Origin: Stx2-converting phage Stx2a_F451
DNA length: 64,000 nucleotides
Sequence record: AP012532
Reading direction: 5' to 3' (one strand)
Within the stretch, counting starts at the first letter, position 1. Each line of letters opens with the position of its first letter. A program made the position numbers. Positions 51,001 to 54,000 of the stretch are shown here, in pieces.

Positions 51001-54000
51001 ATATGATTAGTTGAAGCGAGTCTTTAATATTCATTTAAAATGTCTAAAAAGATGTATTATTAAAAAGTTTAGCGTGTTATCTGAATACAGGATATCTTAA
51101 ATGAAGAGTATAGCAACACTGGTTGTGTGTGCAATCTCCGGGATTGCCTGTGTAAATTTATCTGCACATGCAGCAGAAGGAGAGCATACAATTTCTCTGG
51201 GGTATGCGCACTTTCAGTTTCCGGGACTGAAGGATTTTGTAAAGGATGCGACTGCTCATAACAGGGAGACTTTCAGTCATTTCGTCAACAGAAACTACTT
51301 TTCTTCATTGGGCGAATATACAGATGGTCGGGTCAGTGGATATGAAGGCAAGGATAAAAATCCACAGGGCATTAATATCAGGTATCGCTACGAGATAACG
51401 GATGATTTTGGCGTTATCACCTCTTTTACATGGACGCGTTCTCTCACTAACTCACAGACATTTATTGATGTGCAGTCAGCCGATCATACCAGGAAGATTA
51501 AGAATCCGGCAGCTTCTGCCAGAACGGATATCAGGGCGAATTACTGGAGTCTGTTAGCGGGGCCTTCATGGCGGGTTAATCAGTACATGAGTTTATATGC
51601 GATGGCAGGGATGGGCGTTGCTAAAGTTAGCGCTGACCTGAAAATTAAGGACAATATTAACAGTAGTGGCGGATTTTCTGAAAGCAACAGCACGAAAAAA
51701 ACCTCCCTTGCGTGGGCTGCAGGTGCACAGTTTAACCTGAATGAGAGTGTTACACTGGATGTGGCTTACGAAGGTTCCGGCTCTGGCGACTGGCGCACGA
51801 GTGGCGTTACTGCTGGCATTGGCCTGAAATTCTGACCTGTATCCGGTAACCGTTTACTACCCGCTGTGATGGCGGGTTTTTTATTGCCCGTACAGGGCAA
51901 AAACCGTAAATTATGCGTGGGTGCCTTTCGGCTGATGGCTGGAGGGTGAACCTGAAGGCCTGATGTGGAAAGGCCCCGAGTCAACTTAACGTTAACCCGA
52001 GGCCCTAACACTTCGTACCTTAAGCAAGTAGAAGGTTAGCGCCTCTCTGTAAAAGGAGTCAAGCGCTATGTCGCAAAAATCGCTTATCACCGTCACAATT
52101 TGCATGACGGTTATCTTCACCATCTGGATGTTGCACGGTTCACTGTGTGAGTTCCGGCTGAATTTGTGGGGAGCGGAGTTTGCGGCGTTCTTACAGTGTA
52201 AGCAGTAGGAAAACCGCGACGGGGACGAGAGTCCCCGTCAACTGGTTGCTGAGGTTCAGCCGATATGGCACCCGTTTCAGGTGAGAGAATGAACGATAAA
52301 ATTCTCTGGTATATGCAGCGTGTTGTGAGAAATTCCCGCAACCCTGAATTTATGAATGAAGTTAAAGACGCCTGCCTTAAAAAGCAGGCGTTTTGTTTTG
52401 AGGCACCTGATGGCTTTTTGGTGCTGCGTTCTGTGCTCAGTGCTGATGGTATCCCTTATGTTCTGGTGTTGCTGGGCGTGTGTACGGGGAGTAACAGCGT
52501 TGAGCGTTACCTGCCGGAGGTGAAGACATTAACCCATCTGGCTGGCGGACGCTGGGCTGAGTTCCATACGGCAAGGCGGGGATTTATCCGGCTGGGAAAA
52601 CGACTGGGCTTTGAGCGAATGCCGGATGATGAGGATGGCTTCATGGTGTTCAGGATAGCGGTCTGACTGCTACAGTTTTCATCATTGTGTTTAAACCAAC
52701 ATTGTAATTCACATTCTGACCCTGCTCCGGCAGGGTTTTTTGTTATCCAGGGGGCCATTATGGGTGGAAGTAAAGGCGGTGGTGATACCAAAGTAAAACC
52801 AACAGCAGCGCAAATAGCACAGGAAGAAGTGGCCTGGAAAGGGTGGCAGGATTACAAAAATATCCTCCGCCCGGCTGAAGATAACTTCATGGAAAAGGTC
52901 GATGACCTGAACAGTGAGCAGCAGTACGACAATATTGCTGGCACCACAAATCTGGGGTATCAGAAACAGTTTGGCGAAGCACGGAAGGAGCTTGCGGGTA
53001 ATCTTGCTCAGTCCGGCGTTGACCCATCCAGTGGTCGTTTTAATGCGGTAATGAATGCGAACCAGAGTGACCAGGTAACCGGGCAGATTGACACAACCAC
53101 ACGGGGGCAGGTATCGCAGGCAGATAAGTATGTTGCCGGGCTACAGGATGTTGCTGCTCTCGGTTCTGGTCAGAAGGCGGATGCGTTACAGAGTTTTAAC
53201 TCTCTGGCAGACAGCAGTCTGGCAAAAGCTAAATCGGATGCACAGGCGGCGTTTACGAAACAGCAGGGGCGAGCCTCTCTTGTTGGCGCTGGTCTGGGTG
53301 CGGCAGGTGCATATGCGATGCATAAGGCTGGCGGTAGCGGAGGAAGTGGCGGTGCTAAAACACCTGGCACCGGCGCTAATGCCATTCAGCATCAGGCTCA
53401 GAACTGGAGACTGTAATTATGGAGTATGGCAAATACGAAACTCTCGCAAGGGCTGGTTATTCAGGAGCAGACCGCCCACAGGGTGACTGGCAGACGTCAG
53501 CAGCGCTGACACGCCAACAATACGACGACTGGCGAACCAGATATTTGCCCCGCGTGGCAAGGCTGGCTGACCTTGGGGAGAACAACAGTCTGATGAATGC
53601 ACAGCTTGCACGGGTGGGAGGCCTTGCCACTTCCAGTCTCCGTACAGCGCAGATGGCGCAGGATAACCAGATGGCGAGATACGGGGTAAACCGCCCGGAT
53701 AATCCCGACAGTAATACGCTGGGGTTACGTAATGCCCTGGCAATTGCTGGCGCGAAAAATGGTATCCGTGAAGCCGAACAGGATCGCCAGATGAATATTC
53801 TGACGGGGGCTTCTGCACCGGCAAGACAGAAACTGAGTGTTGGCGGCCAACTGGTGGCAGCGTAAGGGGGCAATATGGGATACGGTTTACTGGATATTGC
53901 AAATCAGTCGCGGCGTGAGGCATTACAGGGAATAAGTGACGCAGACAGACGACGTGAAGAAATTGAGGCTGCGAACAAACAGATGGCGGCGCAACAGAAA

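Follow-up and report, generated by a model that had tools for sequence, protein, structure and literature searches.

In the hok/sok system of plasmid R1, translation of mok up to the hok ribosome-binding site is required (PMC9841398), and neutralisation by the antisense RNA involves cleavage of the duplex by RNase III, as shown for R1 (PMC9841398) and in part for hokW-sokW (PMC8621323). Among type I toxin-antitoxin pairs, only the latter has been studied in Stx2 phages of the 933W/Sp5 type, which drive both the production and the spread of Shiga toxin in enterohaemorrhagic E. coli; after induction, hokW-sokW brings growth arrest forward by about 40 minutes and doubles phage release (PMC8621323). 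More generally, the text of a preprint by Escalera-Maurer et al. (bioRxiv 10.1101/2025.08.07.668861) describes hok genes as enriched in prophages and reports the existence of tandem "islets". Here, we analysed a window of 64,000 nucleotides from the Stx2-converting phage Stx2a_F451 (AP012532), in which the locus at 51919..52273 is, with a probability that we put at about 85%, a type I toxin-antitoxin module of the hok/sok kind, which a Stx2 phage of the 933W/Sp5 type carries as a moron and which constitutes a second Hok locus beside hokW-sokW.

The module lies between lom and L0129, co-oriented with lom and with all the flanking late-region genes. The phage of the window is of the 933W/VT2-Sakai type, matching AF125520, AP000363 and others at 100% identity over 431 nt, and the counterpart of the locus in 933W is at 45432-45862. 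The 1999 record of phage 933W has no annotation between lom and L0129 for the 46-aa ORF of the module, which RefSeq/PGAP lists as WP_000078907.1, a Hok/Gef family protein, and which PHROGs assigns to phrog_251 (E 2.8e-24). The toxin gene is thus already known, being listed by RefSeq, PHROGs and the 2025-26 preprint, and the RNA parts of the module are annotated in no record. One recent phage record names the ORF 'MokW-like host killing', a name that the PHROGs family also carries.

The toxin gene (52068..52208, + strand; ATG 52068, TAG 52208) was identified by ORF reading, Pfam, PHROGs and alignment, and encodes the peptide MSQKSLITVTICMTVIFTIWMLHGSLCEFRLNLWGAEFAAFLQCKQ. It is exactly where the first-pass annotation of this DNA had put a 46-aa ORF with the strings GSLCEFR and AEFAAF, and it is missing from the ORF track only through the 60-aa cut-off of that track. 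The peptide has an N-terminus MSQKS, one transmembrane helix, as had been anticipated, and two invariant cysteines, C27 and C44, in its C-terminal domain. The proposal of a Hok/Gef-type toxin was borne out by Pfam HOK_GEF (PF01848), which matches over profile positions 6-42 of 42 with 33.2 bits (E 4e-8; gathering cut-off, 22 bits). L26-C27-E28 and C44 are invariant across a 14-sequence subfamily alignment, and the Hok logo given in the preprint has L-C-E after the transmembrane helix (30-32) and a Cys or recodable Tyr near the C-terminus (48) (bioRxiv 10.1101/2025.08.07.668861). As the LCE motif and the C-terminal Cys are present and the Pfam threshold is passed, we place the peptide in the Hok/Gef family. 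All 56 relatives of the peptide, from Escherichia, Shigella and Salmonella, are 46 aa long and named Hok/Gef. Against distant copies, the dN/dS of the toxin ORF is 0.2-0.35, and among Stx-phage variants dN is 0 with dS up to 0.30; judged from these rates, the toxin ORF is under purifying selection. The peptide is identical to 72_1589 in Table S2 of the preprint, the representative of the high-abundance cluster 72, and was cloned for an arabinose-induced toxicity assay. The preprint text names only 19_179, 60_1482 and 69_1540 as non-toxic among the 45 sequences tested (bioRxiv 10.1101/2025.08.07.668861); because 72_1589 is absent from these three, we count it as reported toxic on expression, by exclusion from the text rather than from the figure.

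The coding sequence is embedded in a conserved hok-type mRNA module (51919..52273, + strand), the equivalent of the full-length, translationally closed mRNA, which was delimited by similarity, fold and consensus structure: similarity to copies that are ∼80% identical stops exactly at 52273. The leader is 149 nt long (51919..52067), shorter than the ∼170 nt of the initial estimate. The supposition that it is folded proved sound: the 355-nt unit has a minimum free energy of -153.7 kcal/mol (z = -6.3 versus shuffles), and the consensus structure of 36 distinct homologues, drawn from IMG/VR and exact-protein look-ups, comprises 77 pairs with 98.3% of cells paired versus 35–43% in slid controls. 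Compensatory changes occur at 19 of these pairs, a number reached by 0 of 500 shuffles, the covariation between Escherichia and Salmonella depending largely on a single clade split. A scan of one genome per species yielded only 6 loci, 3 of them in records of unrelated taxa that resemble contamination. The covariance-model search that had been suggested as a check gave a divided result: Rfam RF01794 aligns to the leader over its full length (1-157 of 157) with E 8e-6, yet its 35.6 bits fall short of the gathering score (59), so that the match was found only in an E-value run and no match was returned at the locus at gathering thresholds. Control runs with the same model gave 113.5 bits for hokW, 87.2 for an R1-type locus and 39.5–51.7 for other copies of the subfamily, and established that the model is oriented along the hok-mRNA sense strand, from the mRNA 5' end to the hok AUG; the match on the + strand is therefore the correct homologous placement. 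The predicted mRNA start, G 51919, is taken from position 1 of the Rfam model. Upstream of it lies a putative promoter (51884..51912, + strand) with a -35 TTGCCC (51884-51889), a 17-nt spacer and a -10 TAAATT (51907-51912), at which positions most E. coli copies in unrelated contexts retain TTGCC and TA(A/G)ATT. A sigma-70 consensus scan at its threshold called no promoter on either strand of the locus, and both this promoter and that of the antisense RNA described below are therefore argued from homology.

In the predicted full-length RNA, the two ends are paired with each other. A tac-like 5' element (GGGUGCC UUU CGGCUGA; 51919..51935, + strand) faces a complementary fbi-like 3' element (UCAGCCG AUAU GGCACCC; 52256..52273, + strand), 51919-51925 pairing with 52267-52273 (helix 1) and 51929-51935 with 52256-52262 (helix 2), in both the minimum-free-energy fold and the consensus of the 36 homologues. 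Helix 2 shows compensatory changes across this set, and the GCACCC of the fbi-like element is present in all aligned copies except one (L097, GCACTC). When the 3' end is cut to 52243, the 5' element is predicted to pair instead with 51968-51977, within a ucb-like, or anti-tac, box GGAAAGGCCCC (51967..51977, + strand) that, in the closed form, supplies the 5' arm of the leader hairpin. This alternative helix is 97.2% paired across homologues (versus 29–72% in slid controls) and has compensatory changes from U-A to C-G and from C-G to G-C; alignment columns 10-11 covary with both partners of the 5' element. The hok ribosome-binding site (AGGAG, 52054-52058) is enclosed in a predicted hairpin (52037..52068, + strand; helix 7 of the consensus) with an outer stem UAGCGC/GCGCUA and an inner stem UCUC/GGAG, which is 99.5% paired with changes only from G-C to G-U. 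A long-range helix of 12 pairs (52070..52186, + strand; helix 8, 99.5% paired) joins the start-codon region, 52070-52083 GUCGCAAAAAUCGC, to the AEFAA codons, 52173-52186 GCGGAGUUUGCGGC, and it is because of this pairing that the AEFAA coding stretch is invariant in DNA. Past the stop codon is a stem-loop (52217..52240, + strand; helix 14) with compensatory changes (G-C/C-G/A-U) in 5 of its 9 pairs, which by analogy with R1 (PMC9841398) is probably the counterpart of the stem-loop at the 3' terminus of processed hok mRNA; it also scores as a minus-strand terminator in a terminator scan.

On the minus strand, the fold, the strand preference of the hairpin and a conserved promoter point to a Sok-like antisense RNA of ∼58 nt (51968..52026, deduced ends). 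Its predicted layout is an unstructured 5' tail of ∼20 nt, a 16-bp hairpin (51970-52006) and then UUUCC, and the fold of the antisense 80-mer has a z of -5.6. The inverted repeat ggccccgagtcaacttaacgttaacccgaggcc, quoted in the first-pass annotation as an example of the repeats in the leader, is found at 51972..52004, and is the predicted Sok terminator hairpin. In 36/36 homologues, the antisense version of this hairpin is the more stable one (mean -21.8 versus -12.9 kcal/mol), because its G-U pairs turn into A-C mismatches on the sense strand; its basal stem is conserved with wobble pairs that are possible only on the minus strand. The putative antisense promoter (52033..52062, minus strand), placed by homology, has a -35 TTGACT (52062 to 52057), an 18-nt spacer and a -10 TAACCT (52038 to 52033). 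The -10 reads TAACCT in Escherichia copies and TATCCT in some Salmonella copies, the latter being the hexamer at the aligned position of R1 sok; in the 933W hokW locus, the promoter is TTGCCT-17-TAACCT, and its end is 7 nt short of the annotated start of SokW. The function of sokW is abolished by mutations of the -10 region, for which the text gives no hexamer (Takada et al., PMC8621323). The predicted antisense RNA is complementary to mRNA positions 48-108, and the annotated SokW of 933W covers 51-121. A hypervariable stretch (52006..52030) coincides with the predicted 5' recognition tail of the antisense RNA and its target: its column entropy of 0.77 is the second highest of 12 segments compared, after 52249-52266 (1.09), just upstream of the fbi element, and it varies even between otherwise near-identical Stx-phage copies. 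Hairpin preference and promoter conservation thus support the Sok-type antisense region that had been proposed.

We found no mok frame overlapping hok in the window copy, in all three frames and with ATG, GTG or TTG starts: an in-frame TAA at 52050 blocks one frame, and the other two have no start that reaches hok. The mok AUGs of R1 and hokW have no counterpart in this copy, and no consistent mok frame was found among the 36 homologues, some of which have frames of 36–92 codons overlapping hok with differing starts, and many of which have none. ORF reading revealed a 24-codon upstream ORF (51965..52039, + strand) with a GTG start; a conserved AUG is present at 51963, 2 nt before the GTG, and the UAG stop codon of the ORF constitutes the first three bases of the stem closing the ribosome-binding-site hairpin. 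Although its frame is not conserved, this ORF is a possible functional substitute for mok.

Taken together with what is known of R1 hok/sok and hokW-sokW, these features suggest how the module would work. The + strand would give an mRNA of at least ∼355 nt, transcribed from its own promoter and encoding the 46-aa inner-membrane Hok peptide; the tac/fbi pairing would join its 5' and 3' ends, the ribosome-binding site being buried in its hairpin, and by analogy with plasmid R1 hok/sok and hokW-sokW the full-length mRNA would be inert. Slow 3' trimming to the 52217-52240 stem-loop would then allow the 5' end to re-pair with 51967-51977, which would open the leader to ribosomes and to the antisense RNA. 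As long as the unstable antisense RNA is made, it would pair with the leader, the duplex would be destroyed and no toxin would be produced; once its synthesis is halted because the prophage is lost, transcription is shut off or the phage is induced, the stable mRNA would be translated and the peptide would damage the inner membrane. As no canonical mok frame overlaps hok, any translational coupling in the window copy would need the 24-codon upstream ORF, whose stop lies at the foot of the ribosome-binding-site hairpin. Such a module would most probably serve to stabilise the prophage and/or to help in killing the host after induction.

To the left of the module is the intrinsic terminator of lom (51859..51885, + strand; stem ACCCGC...GCGGGT and T-run), identified by terminator scan and sequence, which marks the left edge of the module and shields it from transcription of lom in the lysogen; homology to module copies in other genomic contexts starts just 3' of it. 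On its right, 15 nt past the module end, is L0129 (52289..52666, + strand), a phage gene of phrog_610 with no function assigned, whose likely start was taken as ATG 52289 because residue 9 of the annotated protein is the first that the family profile covers. The module copies elsewhere have their own strong terminator, which the window copy lacks, L0129 being there instead. Within L0129, the terminator scan detected a terminator-like hairpin with a T-run (52368..52400, + strand), at which the primary hok-like transcript of the lysogen may end. Searches for expression data on the intergenic region by accession number, in EcOnc sRNA lists and in EHEC transcriptomes found none.

The gene might act mainly in the lytic cycle, as an accessory gene for host killing or lysis timing rather than as an addiction module, a reading that we regard as a tentative possibility. 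After induction, Q-antiterminated late transcripts would pass the lom terminator and carry the ORF without a defined 5' end, and their collision with the antisense promoter would yield toxin late in infection, in parallel to HokW. The shared orientation with lom and the flanking late-region genes, the missing terminator and the proximity of the next gene all fit such a scheme, and so does the behaviour of the other Hok locus of the same phage: HokW is made only upon RecA-dependent induction, when sokW RNA disappears, and deletion of hokW-sokW halves phage release in a mutant in which the second locus is left intact (PMC8621323). However, when the module was folded in a read-through context (51700-52400), the ribosome-binding site stayed closed, with an unpaired probability of 0.32, equal to that in the full-length mRNA, and there is therefore no support for activation through the mere loss of a defined 5' end. 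Moreover, the 355-nt unit recurs as a cassette in P2-like prophages, in the urease-gene region of O157 and in tandem arrays in Salmonella; in the P2-like prophages it sits at the far end, beside the attachment site and with its own terminator, a placement that fits an autonomous addiction or moron cassette better.

To one more speculative scenario we give a rather low likelihood. The 46-aa subfamily (cluster 72) would be a Hok lineage without canonical mok, in which antisense control acts via a short leader ORF that stops at the foot of the ribosome-binding-site hairpin or through RNA decay only; in Stx phages, the cassette would have lost its terminator and joined the late operon, so that read-through silences the antisense promoter and delivers the toxin as a second factor for host killing, redundant with HokW, which tunes lysis timing and Stx-phage release.

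It is unlikely that the locus is a decaying, silent relic, in which the toxin ORF persists but is untranslatable from its native mRNA for want of a mok frame, as has been suggested of most hok copies on the E. coli K-12 chromosome. This reading draws on the lack of a canonical mok frame in the window copy and the inconsistency of the upstream ORFs among homologues, set beside the need in R1 for mok translation to the hok ribosome-binding site (PMC9841398), on the lost terminator of the phage copy, and on earlier reports, cited in the preprint text, of mostly inactive chromosomal Hok homologues in E. coli K-12 (bioRxiv 10.1101/2025.08.07.668861). A relic, however, would hardly be expected to show the substitution pattern of the toxin ORF (dN = 0 with dS up to 0.30 in Stx-phage variants; subfamily dN/dS, 0.2–0.35), nor to retain with compensatory changes all the RNA elements, namely the closure, the alternative pairing, both hairpins, the 3' stem-loop and the antisense promoter. 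The antisense recognition stretch is hypervariable, as expected should specificity matter, and the peptide has kept its length and sequence in two genera although the subfamily has no consistently placed mok frame. Finally, the expressed peptide is reported to be toxic, by exclusion from the preprint text (bioRxiv 10.1101/2025.08.07.668861).

The published hokW-sokW was considered as the identity of the locus and rejected, on the mismatch of primers and of the 51-aa length and the presence of both loci in 933W. The hokW primers YO-357/YO-369 have no match in the window with up to 2 mismatches allowed, and hokW/mokW/sokW of 933W is at 58460-58734 on the opposite strand, ∼13 kb beyond the window locus and past the window end. 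The shared phage type and the 'MokW-like host killing' label, found in one record and in the PHROGs family, would point to a single locus, but it is scarcely conceivable that the two are the same: 933W and VT2-Sakai carry them as separate loci, ∼13 kb apart on opposite strands, and their peptides are 36% identical. Equally improbable is a chance small ORF amid hairpins that serve lom or L0129 as terminators or regulatory signals. The shortness of the ORF, the many hairpins typical of intergenic regions in phage late operons and the minus-strand terminator score of the stem-loop past the stop codon speak for this reading, but lom already has a clean terminator upstream, at 51859-51877, the ORF scores above a curated family threshold and the whole 355-nt unit repeats as a cassette in unrelated contexts.

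A hok/sok-type module thus remains the reading that we favour, and the phage carries a second, intact-looking Hok module in its late operon. The hokW paper makes no mention of a second Hok locus, and its deletion mutant retains it (PMC8621323); the effect of Hok on lysis and phage yield may therefore be underestimated. This is no new kind of system; the value of the analysis is in a correct annotation, including that of the RNA parts.

Compared with the described systems, the locus has relatives at several levels. The preprint on cluster 72 treats coding sequences only and explicitly sets aside Sok, Mok and mRNA structure, and its text holds no discussion of the position of the locus in Stx phages or of its relation to hokW (bioRxiv 10.1101/2025.08.07.668861). 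With hokW-mokW-sokW of 933W/Sp5, the locus shares the phage genome, the family, the -10 TAACCT and a comparable antisense span. However, hokW-mokW-sokW is outside the late operon and the window locus inside it; HokW is a 51-aa protein (MKQQKAM...DYESEK), and hokW has an in-frame mokW extension, whereas the window locus has no canonical mok. In addition, hokW-sokW was tested experimentally (Takada et al. 2021, PMC8621323). The closest named Hok is HokA of the E. coli K-12 chromosome, with 45% identity over 40 residues; both peptides have an N-terminal MxQK and a C-terminal AAFLxCK with a hard-coded second cysteine. The window peptide is four residues shorter than HokA, resides in another genomic context and scores 38.4 bits with the HokA equivalog model (NCBIfam NF007290), below its cut-off of 89. 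R1 hok/mok/sok (parB) is carried by a plasmid rather than a phage; its Hok is 34% identical to the window peptide, which is six residues shorter, its locus type scores 87.2 bits with RF01794 as compared to 35.6, and its antisense -35 is located upstream of the ribosome-binding site, whereas that of the window copy lies between the ribosome-binding site and the AUG. Nevertheless, the two antisense genes occupy the same relative leader position, with a TA(A/T)CCT -10 and a terminal hairpin, and the window locus has in common with R1 the small single-helix toxin with its LCE motif, the 5'-3' mRNA lock, and, as predicted here and described for R1 (PMC9841398), the alternative 5' pairing after 3' shortening, the sequestered ribosome-binding site and the stem-loop past the stop codon.

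The toxin gene was found exactly where the first-pass annotation had placed it, from ATG 52068 to TAG 52208 on the plus strand (46 codons, MSQKSLITVTICMTVIFTIWMLHGSLCEFRLNLWGAEFAAFLQCKQ), and the inverted repeat quoted there lies at 51972-52004. The Hok/Gef character proposed for the peptide was borne out by Pfam HOK_GEF (33.2 bits, curated cut-off 22) and by a profile match to phrog_251 (E 2.8e-24), indicating at the sequence level that it belongs to this toxin family. It scored below the NCBIfam cut-offs for the HokA equivalog (38.4 against 89) and for the Hok family toxin (22.7 against 73); HokA is its nearest named Hok, with 45% identity. 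Protein searches returned only relatives of 46-47 aa from Escherichia, Shigella and Salmonella, every one named Hok/Gef, and the invariant residues of the subfamily alignment include L26-C27-E28 and the entire C-terminal AEFAAFLQCK (A36-K45). Entropy across codon positions was 0.42/0.22/0.62, dN/dS relative to distant copies was 0.2-0.35, and the peptide is identical among Stx-phage variants although dS reaches 0.30. These values indicate that the ORF is under purifying selection.

The first-pass finding is correct and is not new. The gene belongs to a PHROGs family, is annotated as 'Hok/Gef family protein' (WP_000078907.1) in RefSeq E. coli genomes and is labelled 'MokW-like host killing' in a 2025 phage record; the original 933W record has no annotation for the locus between lom and L0129. 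Escalera-Maurer et al. (bioRxiv 10.1101/2025.08.07.668861) list the identical peptide in their Table S2 as 72_1589, the representative of a high-abundance cluster, and it was among the sequences cloned for a drop assay under arabinose induction. The accessible text of this preprint reports 42 of 45 homologues as toxic and names the three non-toxic ones; because 72_1589 is absent from these three, it can be read as toxic by exclusion. Among accessible records and papers, none gives the RNA anatomy, the missing canonical mok or the terminator loss in the phage copy.

The folded leader that had been proposed upstream of the ORF was confirmed: the 355-nt RNA (51919..52273) folds at -153.7 kcal/mol (z -6.3) with its 5' end paired to its 3' end, and the structure is kept across 36 homologues. 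The RNAalifold consensus from these 36 distinct sequences has 77 pairs; 98.3% of its cells are paired, a share that drops to 35-43% with slid partners. Compensatory changes occur at 19 pairs, a number reached in none of 500 shuffles, and covariation scores 0.209 against 0.139, the Escherichia-Salmonella covariation being mostly one clade split. The 5'-3' closure helix has an invariant part (51919-51925 with 52267-52273) and a covarying second part (51928-51931 with 52260-52263). The consensus further supports a hairpin in the leader, a long-range helix that joins 52248-52254 to the antisense target region, and 12 pairs between the start-codon region and the AEFAA codons, a helix that explains why these codons are invariant at the DNA level. 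A hairpin (52037-52042 with 52063-52068) buries the ribosome-binding site, and a strongly covarying stem-loop follows the stop codon (52217-52240). Read on the minus strand, the latter, with its conserved upstream A-run, looks like an intrinsic terminator, and it might also stop antisense transcription arriving from downstream.

In fold predictions with the 3' end cut to 52243, the 5' end switched its pairing to GGAAAGGCCCC (51967-51977), and the unpaired probability rose from 0.32 to 0.47 at the ribosome-binding site and from 0.24 to 0.56 at the AUG. This alternative helix is 97.2% paired among homologues, and the same two alignment columns covary with both partners of the 5' end. Sequence comparison shows the mRNA fold to be conserved and its 5' end to have two partners that exclude each other, the predicted equivalent of the tac/fbi and tac/ucb switch of R1 (PMC9841398). 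In the covariance-model check of the leader, Rfam RF01794 aligned over its full length to 51919-52081 on the plus strand (E 8e-6), but its 35.6 bits lie below the gathering threshold of 59, as do the scores of all copies of the 46-aa subfamily (39.5-51.7 bits). Control runs, in which the hokW strand scored 113.5 bits and an R1-type hok 87.2 bits, both in alignments that span the mRNA from its 5' end up to the hok AUG, established that the model is oriented along the hok-mRNA strand; since it runs from the mRNA 5' end, 51919 would be the homologous 5' end.

The suggested Sok-type antisense region likewise held at the sequence level, with a promoter and a hairpin conserved on the minus strand. 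The candidate promoter consists of a -35 TTGACT (52062-52057), 18 nt and a -10 TAACCT (52038-52033); the -10 hexamer reads TAACCT in copies from Escherichia and TATCCT in part of those from Salmonella, and TATCCT is also what R1 sok carries at this place in the alignment. The 933W hokW locus carries TTGCCT-17-TAACCT, ending 7 nt ahead of the annotated SokW start, and Takada et al. inactivated sokW through mutation of the -10 region (PMC8621323), whose hexamer the accessible text does not spell out. By analogy, antisense transcription would start near 52026, yielding a minus-strand RNA of ~58 nt with a ~20-nt 5' tail, a 16-bp hairpin (51970-52006) and UUUCC (fold z -5.6). The hairpin is stabler as antisense in 36/36 homologues, at -21.8 kcal/mol on average against -12.9, because G-U pairs turn into A-C mismatches on the sense strand. 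The stretch matching the antisense 5' tail, 52006-52030, ranks second in column entropy among twelve segments compared, after 52249-52266 just upstream of the fbi-like 3' element, and differs even among near-identical Stx-phage copies, as expected if each copy in multi-copy genomes needs its own antitoxin specificity.

By sequence, mok is the sole defining hok/sok feature that fails. In the window copy the hok frame upstream of the AUG is closed by TAA 52050, the two remaining frames have no ATG, GTG or TTG start reaching hok, and nothing corresponds to the mok AUG of either R1 or hokW. Hok-overlapping frames of 36-92 codons with differing starts occur in some homologues and many have none; the Hok-diversity preprint, in its accessible text, likewise refrained from calling Mok frames (bioRxiv 10.1101/2025.08.07.668861). 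An upstream GTG ORF (51965-52039, 24 codons, GAAGG ahead of the start), whose frame is not conserved, ends in a UAG with which the stem closing the ribosome-binding-site hairpin begins, and a ribosome that terminates at this codon could open up the initiation region of hok. An AUG at 51963-51965 with GAAGG ahead is present in all Escherichia copies (GAUGUGGAAAGG) and not in Salmonella; its frame runs for 8 to 79 codons depending on the copy.

Alignments delimit the unit as a cassette with defined boundaries: conservation starts at a promoter-like TTGCC...TA(A/G)ATT pair and GGGTGCC (51919) and finishes at GGCACCC (52267-52273), and similarity to the ~80%-identical E. coli copies ends at 52273. 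Such DNA (~80% identity) is present in ~1,750 of 5,426 complete E. coli genomes, and cassette-like DNA occupies up to 9 places in one genome. Contexts include the far end of P2-like prophages, where the cassette comes straight after ogr and adjoins the bacterial flank, the neighbourhood of urease accessory genes (ureE-ureG) in O157, and E. albertii and Salmonella, including subsp. diarizonae; in Salmonella, two or three copies also occur in tandem, ~500 nt apart. Tandem copies after ogr in Salmonella P2-like prophages lie at 858-2211, 1854-2701 and 1855-2701 of records L095, L099 and L100, and the tandem copies differ in their antisense-recognition stretch, each having a terminator of its own. 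In one Stx-phage-type copy (L031, IMG/VR 2529293141_000015), unrelated sequence ~200 nt upstream of the ORF has taken the place of the promoter and 5' tac-like element, leaving the antisense region and the ORF whole; this copy represents a naturally occurring 5' truncation. The cassette also turns up in three further records (L008, L009, L011), namely a Xanthomonas pisi genome, where an 857-bp contig matches the Stx-phage copy at 100% identity, a MAG assigned to Planococcaceae, and an assembly from Vagococcus; assembly contamination most likely accounts for all three.

In nearly all other contexts a strong terminator lies ~30 nt past the cassette, most commonly CCCGCAGCG-loop-CTGCGGG plus a T-run; in the Stx-phage copy the start of L0129, the downstream phage gene, stands in its place. 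The annotated L0129 start, ATG 52265 (52265-52666), overlaps the fbi-like element and is, judging from sequence, probably wrong. Because the phrog_610 profile match begins at residue 9, ATG 52289, preceded by GGTGAGAG, is the likely start, and the hok module would therefore be intergenic. Its upstream neighbour lom (51101-51835, Pfam Ail_Lom) has an intrinsic terminator in the terminator scan (51859-51877 plus T-run). A bidirectional terminator-like hairpin with T-runs on both strands (52368-52400, ACGCCTGCC...GGCAGGCGT) lies within the L0129 coding sequence, ~100 nt past the module, and could end the hok-like transcript in lysogens. The Rfam run at gathering thresholds, which covered the whole window, gave matches elsewhere at 26736-26995, 21689-21886, 10158-10216, 2790-3415 and 25079-25327; the families are STnc100 with the adjacent antisense AsxR, isrK and C4 antisense RNA with a1/b1 targets, the lambda cIII thermoregulator, two sRNA-Xcc1 copies and three tRNAs.

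By extension from R1 and hokW-sokW, the full-length mRNA would be inert, and slow 3' trimming to the stem-loop would open the leader; the antisense RNA would pair with the mRNA, followed by decay, and toxin would be synthesised once this short-lived RNA is no longer made. Prophage stabilisation, the default for such cassettes, is a probable role. A contribution to host killing after induction, parallel to HokW, is a live alternative because the module is co-oriented within the late operon and lacks its own terminator. Phage exclusion, also raised in the first-pass annotation, is weakly grounded since R1 hok/Sok gives no protection against T4 (2026 report, PMC13047441).

The type I system hokW-sokW has been published for the same phage (Takada et al. 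2021, PMC8621323), and identity with it was rejected on peptide length, primers, coordinates and strand. Segment 51840-52270 matches phage 933W, VT2-Sakai (Sp5) and dozens more Stx-converting phages at 100% identity, and at least 80% of it is present in 194 of 196 matching phage records. In 933W this locus lies at 45432-45862, whereas hokW/mokW/sokW lies at 58460-58734 on the opposite strand; from the record-window offset, hokW falls just past the window end, and its cloning primers were not found anywhere in the window. These primers encode MKQQKAM...DYESEK (PMC8621323) of a 51-aa HokW, whereas the present peptide has 46 aa and shares 36% identity with it. The accessible text of the hokW paper (PMC8621323) makes no mention of any second hok locus; the hokW-sokW deletion experiments were run with this second locus intact, a point likewise absent from the accessible records and papers.
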